This document shows, in pieces, positions 2,664-9,979 of a stretch of DNA of 11,131 nucleotides. Origin of the DNA: a virus. Both the position numbers and the translations under genes were made by a program. A model generated the notes under the pieces. That model made no database searches, was not told the DNA's origin, and saw only the letters and a list, made by a program, of their open reading frames with translations. Location: the UHGV virus genome UHGV-0072311. One strand, written 5' to 3'. Position 1 is the stretch's first letter, and each line of letters begins with the position of its first letter.

Positions 2664-3341
2664 TCAGTAGCGATGCAGTGAAGGCGGCAACTCTTTGTTC
2701 TTAAGCCTTTCCCATGCCAGAAGGTTCGTCGGCCCGTCAGGCTCATAAATATCTATATCCCGCGTGTGATTAATTAAAACGCCCCTCGCCCTCCCGATGA
2801 TATACGAGAACTCATAGCCGTAGTCGTGGCATATGCCGGAATAGCCAGACTGAATCAGTTTTAATGCGGGATACAACTCACGGAACAATGCCTGTGAGCG
2901 GTTGGCATAATCCCACAGCCATACAAGGCTGTCTGTTTCTTTTGCGGAAAGCCCGTTGAGCTTCTTCTCTTGTTTACCAGTATTTTTCTCGCACTGGCTG
3001 AAATAGCAGTCTTCCAGTTTTTCGAACACATCCCACGCCTGATCGGTTTCTAGCATTTTGGCGTGACGGGCTGCGCCTCGTTCTGTCCAGAGGATGAGGT
3101 GCTTTGCTCGCGGTGCAACTAAGTTACTGTGAGTAACCTTGTTCTTAAATTCCCGCAATTCACCACCCTCCAGTTTAAAGTAGTGCTTACCACAAACAAA
3201 ACGCCCGGCATTGCGCGTATAGTTCACTTTAATGTTGTTGGTCTCAGTGCCGTAAAGTCGTGCCAGTAGTTCGGTAGTGATGACGGGGATGTGGTTATAG
3301 GTAATTGGGGAAAGAGTTTCAACGGAAATTTGAGTCGCCAT
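2664..3341 (-). CDS. ORF6N-domain DNA-binding protein (Roi/antirepressor-like)
   Basis: 225-aa ORF whose N-terminal segment [40 protein letters not shown] fits the ORF6N (KilA-N-related) pattern LYGV.T..LN..V.RN..RF. SD GAGGG lies 8 nt upstream. The Roi assignment is from memory and not verified. Confidence 0.6.
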
Positions 3342-3503
3342 GACAACGCCCTCTGGTTGATGAATTTAACTATCACCACCGTCAGGTGCAAATCTTTGGG
3401 TGGTGAGACGTACAGGGTTTGCACTACCGGATCAACCAACCGGCGAGCCTTTCGGCTCCCCCATACGCCCCACCATAATTCAGATGTGCGTGTGCTTACG
3501 ACA

Positions 3504-3527
3504 ACAAAAAACACGCTCGCGGCGTGT
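3504..3527 (-). terminator. Intrinsic terminator on the - strand (ACACGC-CGCGA-GCGTGT then U5GUUGU)
   Basis: Seen in sequence: 6-bp stem 3511-3516/3522-3527, followed on the - strand by TTTTTGTTGT. It would stop - strand transcription that runs antisense through the + strand island before it reaches the ORF6N gene. Confidence 0.5.
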
Positions 3528-3609
3528 GTCTGTCGCGGTTGAATATCCGGGGTGCAAATCCCGACGCCAGATTTTGCTGGCGTGCGAAGAATATAATCCC
3601 GGATATGTG

Positions 3610-3650
3610 TTGTCGTCAACATACCTTGAATGTATATAACAAATTTGTTA
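3610..3650 (+). promoter_or_regulatory. Candidate promoter (TTGTCG, 17 bp, TATATA) and 14-bp perfect palindrome TAACAAATTTGTTA, a likely operator for the toxin-antitoxin operon
   Basis: Seen in sequence: -35-like TTGTCG at 3610-3615 and -10-like TATATA at 3633-3638. The perfect palindrome at 3637-3650 overlaps the -10 and the first toxin ATG, which is the usual layout for autoregulation by an HTH antitoxin. Confidence 0.4.
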
Positions 3651-3991
3651 TGTTTACTCTCATGAACTACATTATCGAATACTACAGTGACGAGGTTGAA
3701 GCTGAGATCCTTTCTCTTCCTGAGACCTTACAAGCCCGGTACATTCGGTACACGGAGAAAATGCGTATTTACGGAGCTAATCTTGGTTCCCCGCATACAG
3801 AGGCATTTGGCGACGGTTTGTTTGAAATCCGCCTTAAGGGCTCGGAAGGCATAGGGCGTGTTTTTTACTGCACGCTAAAAGGAAAGCGAATCATTATGTT
3901 GCATAGCTTTGTAAAGAAAACGCAAAAAACTCCACCTGCCGAGCTTAGAAAAGCTGAAACCAGAATGAAGGAGGTTAAGCATGACTGGTAA
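3650..3991 (+). CDS. Type II toxin, RelE/ParE superfamily (Gp49/HigB-like 'addiction module killer')
   Basis: The product carries the signature ...DGLFEIRLKG...GRVFYC...RIIMLHSFVKKTQKTPPAEL... typical of Gp49-like toxins. The toxin gene is upstream and its stop overlaps the antitoxin start by 11 bp. The start is uncertain between the ATG at 3650 and the in-frame ATG at 3662; neither has a clear SD. Confidence 0.75.
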   Translation: MFTLMNYIIEYYSDEVEAEILSLPETLQARYIRYTEKMRIYGANLGSPHTEAFGDGLFEIRLKGSEGIGRVFYCTLKGKRIIMLHSFVKKTQKTPPAELRKAETRMKEVKHDW

Positions 3992-4289
3992 ACGTACCCC
4001 ACCTACCATGACACACGATGAAATGGTAGAAAAAATGTTGTCTAACCCCGCAGTAAAAGCAGAATACGACGCCATCGCCGATGAATTCGCACTACTTGAT
4101 GAAATGCTGGCAGCACGAAAAGAAGCTGGCTTAACCCAGGCTGAAGTTGCTGAACGTATGGGAACAAAAGCGACTGCGATAACCAGAATGGAAAGCAATC
4201 TTGCATCAGGTACAAGCGGCCCATCATTTGCCACACTGAAAAAATTCGCCCGTGCTACAGGGAAAAAACTCCAGATCCGCTTCGTTTAA
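3981..4289 (+). CDS. HTH (XRE-type) antitoxin, HigA-like 'addiction module antidote'
   Basis: 102-aa product with the helix-turn-helix motif GLTQAEVAERMGTKATAITRME and a C-terminus ending LKKFARATGKKLQIRF, typical of antitoxins paired with Gp49/HigB-like toxins. A strong SD GGAGG lies 6 nt before the ATG. Confidence 0.8.
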   Translation: MTGKRTPPTMTHDEMVEKMLSNPAVKAEYDAIADEFALLDEMLAARKEAGLTQAEVAERMGTKATAITRMESNLASGTSGPSFATLKKFARATGKKLQIRFV

Positions 4290-4301
4290 CTCTCCACTAC
4301 C

Positions 4302-4326
4302 GCGCCGTCATTCTGGCGGCGCTTTA
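4302..4326 (+). terminator. Weak terminator-like hairpin after the antitoxin gene
   Basis: Seen in sequence: 8-bp stem with one G-U pair (4302-4309/4315-4322) followed by TTTA. The U-tract is short, so this is low confidence. Confidence 0.3.
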
Positions 4327-4343
4327 CCCCAGAGAAATATCAA

Positions 4344-4589
4344 TCACCGGATTACCACATCCCACTCCGGCTCCTGCCATCTCAAATCCGGTGAATCATT
4401 TCTCTCAGGAATAACCATTACGTCCTTTTCCCTTCGCTCCCTTTCTATCGCCATCACAGCCAATGCTGCAACCATGATGTATTTTTGTTCGTCGGTTCCT
4501 GTTTCATAACGACGCATGAGGGTAAACTCGGGGCGATCAGTAACCTCAATGATTTCGTTAATTTCTTTAATTTCGCGAGGAATATCCAT
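4344..4589 (-). CDS. Hypothetical acidic protein (81 aa)
   Basis: The ORF begins MDIPREIKEINEIIEV... and has an excellent SD, AAGGAG, 8 nt upstream on the - strand. Its ATG overlaps head-to-head with the ATG of the DUF4145 gene at CCATGG (4586-4591). I recognise no family. Confidence 0.45.
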   Translation of the reverse strand: MDIPREIKEINEIIEVTDRPEFTLMRRYETGTDEQKYIMVAALAVMAIERERREKDVMVIPERNDSPDLRWQEPEWDVVIR

Positions 4590-5262
4590 GGGTTTAGTCT
4601 CCTTTGATATCACATGCCCGCACTGTTTAAAAGAGCGAGCTGTTATTGAGGCATTTGCCGAAAAACAAATTGAAAAAACACCTTTTTTTAACGTCGCTTT
4701 TGTATGCAGAAGTTGTCATCGAGGAGGTGTTGCTATTGTTGAAATCCCATCAGACCACTATCACGGTCCCATGGCGGAAAGCCAGAAAAAAGACCTCGAT
4801 ATTCTGATTTCAGGAAATAGCCAGTACCGTTTCCGCAAGATCTATCCTGTGGTCAAAAAAATTACCGCACCAGAATATACGCCCCCGGTTGCAGACCGTA
4901 CTTTTGTTGAGGCAAAAGAGGATTTACAGAGGAGGCGGTACGACACAGTGGTTATTCTTTGTCGCAGAGTCCTCGATATCTCCACGAAAAAACTGCTCGG
5001 CGATGAAGCAGGAAAAGAATCGCTGTCGCAACGTATTCAGATGATTTACAAAAAAGGCCTGATCACTGAACAGATGAAGGAATGGGCTCATATTGTACGA
5101 ATTGATGCCAATAAAGCAGTTCATACAGATGAAGTTTTCACACCAATTGAGGCAAGCCAGATCCTGAGTTTTACCGAAATGTTTTTAGTCTACGCCTTCA
5201 CTCTGCCTGCAATGGTGGAAGCCAGACGTGAACAAAAAAGATCAGATTCAGCCTCTATATGA
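4588..5262 (+). CDS. Zinc-ribbon plus DUF4145-like (HEPN-superfamily-like) protein; candidate abortive-infection/defence effector
   Basis: The N-terminus has two Cys pairs (CPHC ... CRSCH), consistent with a zinc ribbon. The C-terminus carries EWAHIVRIDANKAVH followed by a hydrophobic helix, matching the DUF4145 pattern wA..iR..GN.aaH as I recall it. SD GAGG lies 5 nt before the ATG at 4588; the upstream in-frame ATGs at 4516 and 4549 lack one. Confidence 0.65.
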   Translation: MGLVSFDITCPHCLKERAVIEAFAEKQIEKTPFFNVAFVCRSCHRGGVAIVEIPSDHYHGPMAESQKKDLDILISGNSQYRFRKIYPVVKKITAPEYTPPVADRTFVEAKEDLQRRRYDTVVILCRRVLDISTKKLLGDEAGKESLSQRIQMIYKKGLITEQMKEWAHIVRIDANKAVHTDEVFTPIEASQILSFTEMFLVYAFTLPAMVEARREQKRSDSASI

Positions 5263-5284
5263 ATCACTTTTCTGAACACGTAAG

Positions 5285-5305
5285 CCCCCGTCATTCACGA
5301 CGGGG
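5285..5305. other. GC-rich hairpin between convergent genes (CCCCGTC-ATTCAC-GACGGGG), no U-tract
   Basis: Seen in sequence: 7-bp stem overlapping the stop codon of the - strand gene and lying between the convergent DUF4145 and HTH genes. With no U-run on either strand it is not a canonical intrinsic terminator. Confidence 0.3.
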
Positions 5306-5726
5306 AGAACATCAATCCCTCTGCACTCCCTCGCCAGAATGCCAGCACACGCTGCATCGTTTCGCTGTTACGGCACTCGCGACAAATTGTGTTGTAGCGT
5401 CTGTCGTAGCGCCGTATTTCCCCATCTGGTAATGCCCGGATAAGGTCTGGATCAACGACAACCGGTTTCTTCGACTTTGCCCTTGAGAGTTTTTTGCGGG
5501 CATTTTGCCAGTCCTTACGAGCCTGTTCAGACGGGAATACTCCGTAACCGGAATTGTAAACATCACCACTGGCGGCCAGCTCCATGCATAAACGACCGAC
5601 AGACGCATGACTGACACCAATTTCATCCGATAACTGCCGAATCGTGCCTCGTCCGTTAAGGCGTACGAATTCCACGATCAGCCCCTTAATTTTTTCCCGC
5701 TCTTCTGGTGTAAATGCTCTTGTCAT
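5295..5726 (-). CDS. Hypothetical HTH-containing protein (143 aa)
   Basis: The ORF has an SD GGAGG 5 nt upstream of the ATG at 5726; the GTG at 5732 used by the ORF track is less likely. A helix-turn-helix-like segment (GTIRQLSDEIGVSHASVGRLCMELAASG) is present, and the C-terminus has a CRECRN motif. It sits in the nin-equivalent region. Confidence 0.55.
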   Translation of the reverse strand: MTRAFTPEEREKIKGLIVEFVRLNGRGTIRQLSDEIGVSHASVGRLCMELAASGDVYNSGYGVFPSEQARKDWQNARKKLSRAKSKKPVVVDPDLIRALPDGEIRRYDRRYNTICRECRNSETMQRVLAFWRGSAEGLMFSPS

Positions 5727-5741
5727 AAGCACCTCCGGAGA

Positions 5742-6512
5742 TCACTTTGTTGTCGGTGAATGAACCGGAATATCAGCAATCGAACTGAAAATATCCCGGT
5801 GTTTATTCAGCTCCCGCAGCGCGGCGCAGACTCGCTCCCACTTCTGAACATCACTTTTCGCCCTGCGCAGCGCCAGGTTTGCCCTGCGCAGGGACGGAAA
5901 AATCAGCTCATCTGCTTGCGTTTCGGTAAACGATGGCAACGACTGCACAATGTCCGCCACAGTTTCTGTTTTAATTTCTTCCTGTGTTGCGGCTTCCCGG
6001 ACTGGTAACGCAGCACCTGCTGGCTGAGGAAAGGCCTTACCATCATTTTCCGTTACCGGCGCGGTTTTCGGATCTGCTGGTAAATTACCCCCCGGCATGC
6101 AGTAACGAAATTTACCGTTCTGATTAACGCGTGCCAGCCGCCCCGTTGCGGTTACCACCGCCAGCGTGGAAGCAACCTTGCGAGTGGTAACTCCGAACTT
6201 ACCCGCTATTTCTTCACAGGTTTTAGCCCCCTCCTGAGAGATAAACTCAATCATCATGTCAGCGCTAACTTTTGGAGCGACCTCTTCGGTCAGCATATCC
6301 TGTGTTTCAGATTTTACTGGCCGCTCTTCGGTTACCCCAGCTTCACCTTCGACAGCCAGAAACCAGGTGTGACCCGTTTTATCAACAACGCCATTTTTTT
6401 TGAGCTCCCACAGTTCGTTGAGAACTTCTTCACGGCTGATATCAAGCCGCGCCGCCAGTTCAACAGAATTGGCTTTTCCCATCGCTTTCAGTGCATGCAA
6501 TACGGTTTCCAT
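5742..6512 (-). CDS. Hypothetical protein with two winged-helix-like segments (256 aa)
   Basis: Two segments resemble wHTH recognition helices (SVELAARLDISREEVLNELWELKKNGVV and TCEEIAGKFGVTTRKVASTLAVVTATGRLARV). It lies immediately downstream of the DnaC-like gene with a 25-bp gap. I recognise no specific family. Confidence 0.55.
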   Translation of the reverse strand: METVLHALKAMGKANSVELAARLDISREEVLNELWELKKNGVVDKTGHTWFLAVEGEAGVTEERPVKSETQDMLTEEVAPKVSADMMIEFISQEGAKTCEEIAGKFGVTTRKVASTLAVVTATGRLARVNQNGKFRYCMPGGNLPADPKTAPVTENDGKAFPQPAGAALPVREAATQEEIKTETVADIVQSLPSFTETQADELIFPSLRRANLALRRAKSDVQKWERVCAALRELNKHRDIFSSIADIPVHSPTTK

Positions 6513-7284: not shown

Positions 7285-8367
7285 TTACCCCCTGAAACCC
7301 GGCGGAATTTCGGTGTCCGGTTCAGAAATGTGATTCACGCAACGCAGGCTGACTGCGCCAGCCTTCGGCAGCGACCACGGATTTTCGAAATTCCTGTTCG
7401 GGCCAAAAAACGTCGATGCCTGCTGAACAAATTCAGTTCCCGCTTTCCCGGTAGCCTCCAGGTATCTTGCGTAACGCCTCACGCCATCCAGCACGACATC
7501 CGGTGACACCCCTTCGCGTAATCTGGCCCTCCAGGCATTGAACGCGGATTTCTTCGGGTTTGACCCTGCCCGATGCGGATATTCACGCCAGACCCGTTCG
7601 AACACGTCAGGATAATCAACTCGTCCCGCAGACGGTCCCGGCATCGCCCGGGTTAACCCAATCGGCTTCCCGCTCATCGCGGAATCGGCTTCAGGCTGCT
7701 GCGGTTGGCGTTGTTGCTCCGGTTCGACGATCAGCACCTGCTGCACACAACGCCCGGAATCTGCTTCCGGTGTCGTGCCATCTGGTCCTGGACGTTCAGT
7801 CAGAACAGGACAAAAATCCCCCTGTGGGTCCGTGGCGATTTTTTCGCCATGGACCAGAAGGGTTTTATCCCTTTCCTGTTCCTGTTCCTGTTCCTGTTCT
7901 TGGCTTGAAAGGGGCTCTGAAGGGGCTTCAATTTTCCGACATGATTCACGTCTGACATCCAGGTGGAAATCATCCTTATATCTATCATAAAAGGATGATA
8001 AAAAAGGATTTTCCAGCAACGCGGAATATTCATTTCTTACCCCAGCACAACGGTTATCGCCAGGTTTCAGCGATTCACCAACCTGCCATGCTGCCATTTC
8101 ATGCACCCATACAACCTCAGAATCATGGTCATAGCTGCAAAAACCAGCCTCGCAAGCCATTTGAAGCCCCTTAGAAGCCCCTTCAGGAGCAAGTCCGGTT
8201 TCGTGAGCAATGTACAAAACAGGCAGGTAATAAAGGCCCAGCATATTGGAATGAGGCGAGGTCATCATATACAACGCCACTACCATACATTCCGGACCAG
8301 ACTTCCTTAGTTTTCGCCCTGTATCGCCTAACCAGAACTGAGGTGAAATTGTTGCGTAATTACGCAT
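7285..8367 (-). CDS. Putative replication initiation / replisome-organiser protein (non-lambda-O type)
   Basis: The position (after the cII-like gene, directly before the DnaC-like loader with a 6-bp gap) matches the lambdoid O/P slot. The C-terminal motif FERVWREYPHRAGSNPKKSAFNAWRARL resembles the F..FW..YP.K..K..A..AW motif I recall from phage replication initiators. The gene contains an (EQ)n linker and AT-rich palindromic DNA. The family assignment is not verified. Confidence 0.6.
   Translation of the reverse strand: MRNYATISPQFWLGDTGRKLRKSGPECMVVALYMMTSPHSNMLGLYYLPVLYIAHETGLAPEGASKGLQMACEAGFCSYDHDSEVVWVHEMAAWQVGESLKPGDNRCAGVRNEYSALLENPFLSSFYDRYKDDFHLDVRRESCRKIEAPSEPLSSQEQEQEQEQERDKTLLVHGEKIATDPQGDFCPVLTERPGPDGTTPEADSGRCVQQVLIVEPEQQRQPQQPEADSAMSGKPIGLTRAMPGPSAGRVDYPDVFERVWREYPHRAGSNPKKSAFNAWRARLREGVSPDVVLDGVRRYARYLEATGKAGTEFVQQASTFFGPNRNFENPWSLPKAGAVSLRCVNHISEPDTEIPPGFRG
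7626..7718. repeat. Copy A of a ~70-bp direct repeat (copy B at 8398-8466); copy A carries a 23-bp internal insertion
   Basis: Seen in sequence: ccgcagacggtcccgg...aacccaatcggcttc...aggctgctgcggttgg(c/t)gttgttgct is shared at about 90 percent identity. Copy A lies inside the initiator coding sequence; copy B lies in the spacer upstream of it. Confidence 0.8.
7872..7899. repeat. Hexanucleotide microsatellite (CCTGTT)n, about 4.5 copies, encoding an (EQ)n linker on the - strand
   Basis: Seen in sequence: ttcctgttcctgttcctgttcctgttc at 7872-7899, translating to QEQEQEQEQE within the initiator protein. Confidence 0.9.

Positions 8368-9262: not shown

Positions 9263-9979
<717 letters not shown>

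Follow-up and report, generated by a model that had tools for sequence, protein, structure and literature searches.

A Gp49-family toxin–antitoxin module with a predicted operator-containing promoter in UHGV-0072311, a lambdoid prophage sequence of Escherichia coli

Known Gp49-type systems and the pair in UHGV-0072311

Among the described systems closest to the toxin–antitoxin pair of the virus genome UHGV-0072311 reported here is HigBA of Streptococcus pneumoniae TIGR4 (6AF3/6AF4), in which the toxin gene precedes the gene of an XRE-type helix-turn-helix (HTH) antitoxin. HigBA binds palindromes in its own promoter, and the active-site residues R68, R73, F90 and K92 of the toxin, and also E66, are experimentally supported by mutagenesis (PMC7984235). 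HigB1 of the Mycobacterium tuberculosis TAC system (Rv1955; 7NBU, 7AWK) belongs to the Gp49 family and is a ribosome-dependent A-site mRNA cleaver (PMC9098466). Toxin-first order and an HTH antitoxin are also found in gp49–gp48 of phage N15 (tad-ata) and in HigBA2 of Acinetobacter baumannii, on prophages and plasmids. A Gp49-type HigA represses its own promoter; in the case of A. baumannii HigA2, the toxin is the co-repressor, and tad-ata modules and A. baumannii HigBA2 stabilise replicons (PMC5906591). The three-gene HigBAC system of E. coli aborts phage lambda infection, and Gp49-type units can act in this way (bioRxiv 10.1101/2024.02.24.581848). How toxin-first modules keep the antitoxin in excess is called open by the field (PMC5906591).

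The pair lies on the plus strand of the window, that is, the whole stretch of 11,131 nt of UHGV-0072311 that was analysed; all coordinates are positions in it. We estimate a probability of about three in four that the pair is a self-contained type II module of ~670 bp, consisting of a Gp49 Tad/'HigB1-type' toxin and an XRE-HTH antitoxin, which is carried as a moron opposite to the strand of the early-right operon and operates as proposed below. The module is of an ordinary, known kind. What is added here is an operator and a promoter defined by comparison, a candidate recognition residue, and the prediction of a leaderless toxin message. The main elements are as follows.

3662–3991, plus strand: toxin gene, 109 aa, Gp49 family (RelE/ParE superfamily), from the predicted start ATG 3662
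3981–4289, plus strand: antitoxin gene, 102 aa, with an N-terminal segment (residues ~1–35) and an XRE-type HTH (residues ~37–92)
3969–3974, plus strand: antitoxin Shine–Dalgarno (SD) sequence AGGAGG, within the 3' end of the toxin gene
3636–3651: predicted operator, the perfect 16-bp palindrome ATAACAAATTTGTTAT with the core TAACA-N4-TGTTA at 3637–3650, on a comparative basis
3626–3631, plus strand: predicted -35 element TTGAAT, from a conserved offset and the E. coli alleles
3632–3648: predicted spacer of 17 nt, holding the palindrome
3649–3654, plus strand: predicted -10 element TATGTT, the first two bases of which are overlapped by the palindrome core; it contains ATG 3650–3652

The toxin matches the Pfam family Gp49 (PF05973) with 94.2 bits (cut-off 23.9) over the profile positions 2–90 of 90, and the antitoxin matches HTH_3 (PF01381) with 43.4 bits (cut-off 23). 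The profile search thus agrees with the original prediction, made from the letters of the window, of a Gp49-like toxin paired with an XRE-HTH antitoxin. The toxin also matches N15 gene 49, the namesake of the family, with 43% identity over the residues 15–105 (E = 4e-15). No other Pfam family was matched by the toxin at E ≤ 0.01, the canonical HigB families PF05015 and PF09907 and the VcHigB2/RelE family PF06296 included, and neither protein reached the cut-off of any NCBIfam model. The gene order is toxin-first, and the toxin stop codon TAA (3989–3991) and the antitoxin ATG (3981) give the 11-nt overlap that had been read originally. The strong SD sequence claimed for the antitoxin is also present, and it ends 6 nt before ATG 3981.

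The top match in the Protein Data Bank (PDB) by sequence is the S. pneumoniae HigBA complex 6AF3 for the toxin, and HigA of the same complex (6AF3_B) for the antitoxin. An AlphaFold2 (AF2) model of the toxin, built with 35 homologues, has a pLDDT of 86.3 and the order beta-alpha-alpha-beta4-alpha. According to Foldseek, the best fold match of this model is S. pneumoniae HigB 6AF4 (TM 0.74–0.76), followed by M. tuberculosis HigB1 7NBU/7AWK (TM 0.72–0.74); RelE, YoeB and YafQ rank after them, indicating a RelE-like (BECR) fold. When the offset caused by a 20-residue tag in the deposited chain is taken into account, the toxin residues E55, R57, R66, F83 and K85 are aligned to the catalytic residues E66, R68, R73, F90 and K92 of S. 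pneumoniae HigB, and these five residues are unchanged in all 35 homologues. The catalytic R68, R77 and K95 of M. tuberculosis HigB1 correspond to R57, R66 and K85 (active-site equivalences, including K95, from PMC9098466). By analogy with S. pneumoniae HigB and M. tuberculosis HigB1, the toxin, when free, would be a ribosome-dependent mRNA endonuclease.

The pair shares with S. pneumoniae HigBA the extra C-terminal toxin helix and the kept E/R/R/F/K set, in addition to the gene order and the antitoxin type. The sequence identity, however, is ~20%, four palindromes of another consensus are present in S. pneumoniae whereas a single 14–16-bp site is present here, and a leaderless arrangement is not reported for S. 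pneumoniae. The TAC and HigBAC systems differ in having a SecB-like chaperone as a third gene and a chaperone-addiction tail on the antitoxin. A SecB-like third gene was not found here: past the antitoxin stop at 4289 there are only a hairpin and a minus-strand open reading frame (ORF). The antitoxin has no addiction tail, and its C-terminus lies 10 residues beyond the last HTH helix. The module is not a TAC system. With canonical HigB/HigA (Proteus vulgaris Rts1, E. coli K-12, Vibrio cholerae) the pair shares the reverse gene order, the RelE-like toxin fold, the HTH antitoxin and palindromes overlapping the promoter, but it does not match the Pfam families of canonical HigB (PF05015, PF09907, PF06296), and V. 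cholerae HigB2 gives a TM of only ~0.5. The label 'HigB' given originally is thus right in the sense of a Gp49/HigB1-type toxin of the RelE superfamily, and loose with respect to the canonical HigB families.

The AF2 model of the antitoxin (pLDDT 84.7) has helices at the residues 12–20, 23–49, 53–60, 64–76 and 83–92. The HTH is formed by the helices 53–60 and 64–76, the latter being the recognition helix, with K63 directly before it. The fold matches are HTH domains of the HipB, C-protein (C.AhdI) and ClgR type. Between the window and a diverged E. coli allele (our locus label L084), all nine antitoxin changes (9/9) are located within the residues 6–25. Two groups of E. coli alleles differ in the toxin at 28–32 of 109 residues and in the antitoxin almost only at the residues 6–25, the HTH being nearly identical. 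Because the toxin has diverged while the antitoxin changes are almost confined to the residues 6–25, the sequences fit a modular antitoxin, in which an N-terminal neutralising segment would co-evolve with the toxin and the DNA-binding domain would be conserved together with the operator.

Operator and promoter

The original prediction had pointed out a perfect 14-bp palindrome at 3637–3650 and taken it as the operator of the antitoxin. The 14-mer TAACAAATTTGTTA is present there as the single exact match in the window, and it grows to a perfect 16-mer (3636–3651). In first-order Markov simulations of 11-kb sequences, a perfect 14-bp palindrome occurred in 53% and a 16-bp palindrome in 16%. Because chance occurrence in 11 kb is this frequent, the palindrome by itself was dropped as evidence, and its significance rests on its position and on its conservation in relatives.

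Relatives were collected by a scan of one genome per species, resulting in 80 loci with toxins of 50–71% identity, the majority in Beta- and Gammaproteobacteria. The protein collection holds at least 2354 clusters of related toxins. A homologous antitoxin lies immediately downstream of the toxin in 78 of the 80 loci, with overlaps of mostly 8, 11 or 14 nt. Operators were counted with exact and 1-mismatch patterns. Of the 81 loci, 54 carry the degenerate site TA[A/G]C[A/G]-N4-[C/T]G[C/T]TA no more than 70 nt upstream of the toxin; control windows taken from these loci contain it once in 2873. A looser pattern (up to 2 mismatches) was discarded, as 255 of 1496 control windows match it. In an alignment of 74 loci centred on the palindrome, the flanks carry no information except a TTG, a -10-like hexamer and the start codon.

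The half-sites co-vary symmetrically. At the positions ±5 from the centre, the pair A/T is found in 33 loci, G/C in 29, and an asymmetric pair in 12 (n = 74). Among the antitoxin columns, residue K63 is the best predictor of this base pair (mutual information 0.99 bit); it is located just before the recognition helix, and the next best is T65, the second residue of that helix. In 50 of 50 loci, K, Q, R or H at residue 63 is always accompanied by TAACA (A:T), and T or S always by TAGCA (G:C). On a neighbour-joining tree made without the helix columns, residue 63 and the operator base pair each require four parsimony changes, and the association thus arose several times. The site evolves as an operator would, as was proposed, and there is strong comparative evidence that an antitoxin dimer reads the palindrome. 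The recognition rule (K/Q/R/H with TAACA, T/S with TAGCA) is testable and would allow better prediction of cross-talk among paralogous modules.

A second copy of the operator was not found in the window: searching TAACANNNNTGTTA with up to 2 mismatches gave 4 matches versus 4.45 expected, and the only one near the operon is the known site. The imperfect repeat TGTTG-tcgt-CAACA (3608–3621) was considered as a second operator and was assigned instead to the divergent promoter of the small RNA gene isrK.

At the positions -18 to -16 from the palindrome centre, T, T and G are found in 40, 38 and 36 of the 74 loci, and the adjacent columns are uninformative. The hexamers at the -10 offset are TAATAT (22 loci), TATATT (11), TAACAT (9), TATTAT (7) and similar others. 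T occupies hexamer position 6 in 71 of 74 loci, although this position is outside the search pattern. Diverged E. coli alleles keep the -35 element as TTGAAT, TTGCGC or TTGTAC with the 17-nt spacer. In four of these alleles (76–81% nucleotide identity), some with unrelated upstream DNA, the promoter geometry is the same and TATGTT is identical. From this comparison, the conserved promoter of the pair is predicted to be of the sigma-70 type, with a 17-nt spacer holding the operator.

The original prediction had a different geometry, in which the palindrome overlaps a -10-like TATATA (3633–3638) and the first ATG. In full, this rival reading would have TTGTCG (3610–3615) as the -35 element, TATATA as the -10 element, a transcription start at ~3645, and a toxin of 113 aa translated from ATG 3650, so that the operator would lie over the -10 element, the +1 position and the start codon. 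TTGTCG and TATATA can indeed be read in the window at a distance of 17 nt, and ATG 3650 is in frame; several clusters of 113-aa proteins exist, and RefSeq uses the equivalent ATG in the diverged allele L084 (113 aa). However, TATATA is not conserved even among the E. coli alleles: it is replaced by ACATAT or AAACAT, in L084 it stands at another distance from TTGTCG, and two further alleles (L086, L087) lack the sequence. TTGTCG is part of the divergent isrK promoter region. The distant relatives have no ATG at the position of 3650, where hexamers such as TAATAT and TATATT are found, and their proteins align from MNY/MxW. Neither ATG 3650 nor ATG 3662 has an SD sequence. We consider this geometry unlikely. 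The predicted, conserved -10 element is TATGTT at 3649–3654, ATG 3650 lies inside it, and the operator is placed in the promoter spacer and the -10 element rather than over a start codon.

Start codon and toxin message

Two in-frame ATG codons are available for the toxin: ATG 3650, of which the A is the last A of the 14-mer, and ATG 3662. RefSeq uses ATG 3662 in an E. coli prophage that is 98.9% identical over the region 3400–5300. The toxin homologues have 107–111 aa and are aligned from residue 1 of the MNY form, that is, from the second ATG, and ATG 3650 has no counterpart in the distant relatives. ATG 3662 is thus the predicted start codon, on the basis of these alignments.

ATG 3662 is located 7 nt past the -10 element, and the start codon is located 6–7 nt past the hexamer in 42 of 74 loci. 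An SD-like motif (4-mer) precedes the antitoxin start in 58 of 61 related loci, but the toxin start in 3 of 66. Over its first 66 nt, the predicted message is no more structured than shuffled sequences (z = +0.97). Because the distance from the -10 element to ATG is that of a normal transcription start, and nearly all toxin starts have no SD sequence, the toxin mRNA is probably leaderless, with +1 at or 1 nt before ATG 3662, and the antitoxin would be SD-driven.

Leaderless genes occur in lambdoid immunity regions (PMC8630535), and PMC8485053 describes the toxin–antitoxin transcripts of M. tuberculosis as mostly leaderless. The lambdoid examples, lambda cI transcribed from PRM and paaR2 of CP-933P (PMC8630535), resemble the arrangement predicted here in that +1 is the start codon and operators of HTH repressors lie over the promoters. 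They differ in that the leaderless gene encodes the repressor, whereas it encodes the toxin here, and in that their starts are mapped experimentally and the present one is predicted. Gene 49 of N15 (our locus label L088, 788–865), in contrast, has a standard AGGAGG ribosome-binding site (RBS) and no TAACA-N4-TGTTA; another inverted repeat upstream of it is annotated as a terminator stem-loop. Because N15 gene 49 has a normal SD sequence and no such operator, the predicted operator-in-promoter and leaderless design is, from this comparison, a trait of the subfamily with at least 50% toxin identity and not of the whole Gp49 family.

In the proposed mechanism, RNA polymerase would use TTGAAT (3626)–17 nt–TATGTT (3649). 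The antitoxin dimer, alone or with bound toxin, would occupy TAACA-N4-TGTTA, with residue 63, where the recognition helix begins, reading the base pair at ±5 in each half-site. As this site takes up the spacer and reaches into the -10 element, the dimer would turn off transcription of its own operon. Transcription would begin at the A of ATG 3662 or at the nucleotide preceding it, and the toxin would be translated leaderless, without an RBS. The antitoxin would be translated from its own strong AGGAGG, giving antitoxin excess despite the toxin-first order. The N-terminal segment of the antitoxin would neutralise the toxin, and toxin set free would act as a ribosome-dependent mRNA endonuclease. 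In lytic growth, antisense read-through from pR could silence the island that holds the pair. The role of the module may be prophage addiction or abortive infection.

Several points weigh against this reading. The association of residue 63 with the operator rests on ~4 independent switches and on automated operator calls. About one quarter of the related loci have no clean consensus site or have another start distance, partly owing to uncertain start prediction. A simple sigma-70 consensus scan missed the promoter of the pair, in which TATGTT is a 4/6 match to TATAAT; the scan instead called 3619–3590 on the minus strand and 4008–4036 on the plus strand, the latter inside the antitoxin gene past its start. 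The spacing in ~12 relatives implies a leader of 2–7 nt and not a leaderless message, and in E. coli leaderless mRNAs are a rarity (PMC8630535). The pair was not identified as a known defence system by PADLOC or other libraries. With PADLOC-DB v2, the toxin gave only a partial, domain-level match to NsnC (30.7 bits, over 51 residues of a profile with 293 positions), and the antitoxin gave generic HTH matches.

A more tentative proposal, which we regard as possible but not as the expected outcome, is that the leaderless toxin mRNA, with its +1 fixed by the operator-containing promoter, and the antitoxin message read from a strong internal RBS form a device that could respond to conditions favouring leaderless translation. 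If this is true, it would be a hard-wired translational means of antitoxin excess in toxin-first modules. Toxin synthesis could respond selectively to stress or to phage takeover of initiation, and the module would be a sensor and not a passive addiction device. The leaderless toxin message predicted in Proteobacteria would then be a concrete mechanism that sets the toxin:antitoxin ratio in reverse-order modules.

In some relatives the toxin start itself is changed. G3664A, which converts ATG 3662 to ATA, alone distinguishes the 690-nt cassette of phage PhiR5_2 (L002) and of an E. coli prophage (L089) from that of the window, and a third prophage (L090) has G3664A plus C3737A. RefSeq annotates the G3664A alleles with a truncated toxin of 76 aa. 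Translation from ATG 3650 would make the change a harmless M5I; with the start at ATG 3662, these alleles may be toxin-silenced forms that retain the antitoxin. Such alleles raise the question of whether the module is only a remnant, decaying or domesticated, with a toxin that is inactive or not produced and an HTH protein that serves mainly as an anti-addiction or transcription factor. HigB2 and HigB3 of M. tuberculosis, which belong to the same Pfam family, were not toxic (PMC9098466). In the window, however, ATG 3662 and the ORF are intact and no catalytic residue is missing, and the toxin is clearly conserved, with 32 invariant columns in the alignment of 35 sequences. A remnant is, by our estimate, improbable, and the functional type II module is preferred.

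Cassette slot and neighbouring genes

The window shows, in reverse orientation, the early region of an E. coli prophage of the lambdoid, Stx-phage-like type. The toxin–antitoxin pair shares with a DUF4145 gene a small island on the plus strand, which is antisense to the early-right operon. The region 3400–5300 shows 98.9% identity to a prophage of E. coli G1/2 and 98.2% to phage PhiR5_2. The features of this region are listed below.

3622–4291, plus strand: mobile cassette of promoter, operator, toxin and antitoxin, from the breakpoints against an O22:H8 prophage
4302–4325, plus strand: hairpin with a 9-bp G+C-rich stem and a 3-nt loop (4302–4322), then UUU, in the conserved flank
4344–4589, minus strand: ORF of 81 aa (phrog_8371), divergent from the DUF4145 gene, the start codons overlapping by 2 nt
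4588–5262, plus strand: zinc-ribbon/DUF4145 (HEPN-like) gene, DUF4145 36.6 bits (cut-off 23.1)
3583 to 3506, minus strand: isrK, Hfq-binding small RNA (Rfam, 75.4 bits)
3480 to 3396, minus strand: C4 antisense RNA (Rfam, 74.4 bits)
3341 to 2664, minus strand: ORF6N/P22_AR_C antirepressor gene, with isrK and C4 just upstream
9266–9979, plus strand: cI
Minus strand: cro, cII, O, a DnaC-like gene, DUF1627 and DUF977/LygF
Minus strand, further left: ORF6N/P22_AR_C and Rha/KilAC antirepressor-like genes, ninG and Q

In the O22:H8 prophage (L003), a different cassette occupies the same slot, with similarity to the window at 2994–3621 and 4301–5748. The slot contains a ParD-family gene, a hypothetical gene and a HigA-family gene. 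A 71-nt relic of the antitoxin 3' end (window 4221–4291) is present at 2358–2428 of L003, between the ParD-family/hypothetical pair and the HigA-family gene, and the same relic is found in many O157:H7-type genomes. On sequence grounds, the relic is evidence of serial cassette replacement in the slot. At least 80% of the cassette is present in 30 of 5426 complete E. coli genomes. The diverged E. coli alleles have different prophage surroundings and are in every case antisense to the genes next to them.

The hairpin at 4302–4325 has a fold energy of -19.1 kcal/mol (z = -4.95), and none of 200 shuffled sequences was equally stable. A simple terminator scan missed it owing to the short U-tract. 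As the similarity to prophages with a different cassette resumes at 4301, the hairpin is placed in the shared flank, and it is probably a weak intrinsic terminator for whichever cassette fills the slot.

The DUF4145 protein has the motifs CPHC (10–13) and CRSC (40–43) of a Cys4 zinc ribbon, and R171-x7-H179, with the same spacing as R146/H154 of RAZR. In the Cys4 ribbon, the HEPN-like DUF4145 domain and the active-site spacing it resembles RAZR/PD-T7-4, a single-gene abortive-infection RNase that acts alone from its own promoter (PMC13017515). The match to the PADLOC model of PD-T7-4, however, is weak (E = 2e-3), and the protein has no PDB sequence match. The 81-aa ORF accompanies the DUF4145 gene in all the prophages examined (L001–L003, L084) and could be its partner or regulator.

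The placement of the pair beside this HEPN-like gene had been the point of interest of the original prediction. The adjacency is real, and the linkage is not conserved: the DUF4145 gene is absent beside three diverged E. coli alleles of the module and absent within 3 kb in all 80 distant loci. The idea that the pair and the DUF4145 gene form a single defence unit, for example with the pair regulating or backing up the RNase, draws on their adjacency and co-orientation in the window and ~20 E. coli genomes, on the RAZR/PD-T7-4 domain architecture and on the clustering tendency of defence genes, but it is very improbable in view of these absences, of a 98% identical DUF4145 gene beside the ParD-family/HigA-family cassette in the O22:H8 prophage (an arrangement found in many O157-type genomes), of the strong hairpin and the divergent small ORF between the two units, and of RAZR acting alone. 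Linkage was rejected on the prophages with other cassettes and the relatives without DUF4145. From the comparison of loci, the module and the DUF4145 gene appear as two independent accessory units in one hot-spot, and their adjacency as incidental. The slot between the isrK/C4/ant unit and the RAZR-like gene in Stx-type lambdoid prophages is a moron hot-spot, in which accessory genes are exchanged and relics are left. Slot swapping, the recognition rule and the leaderless prediction leave the classification of the system unchanged.

On the other side of the slot, isrK, C4 and the antirepressor gene constitute an immI-like ant control unit. A promoter-like site on the minus strand, TTGACG (3619–3614)–18–TATATT (3595–3590), has its predicted start at the isrK 5' end and stands back-to-back with the promoter of the pair. 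The divergent -35 boxes of the two sides are 6 bp apart, and the cassette junction lies between them. A hairpin at 3527–3511 has the appearance of an isrK terminator.

Two further observations were made outside the island. Rfam places the small RNA STnc100 (143 bits) on the minus strand at 163–368, downstream of the antiterminator gene Q. The window also has another perfect 14-bp palindrome, TGCGTAATTACGCA at 8353–8366, where the replication gene O has its 5' end.

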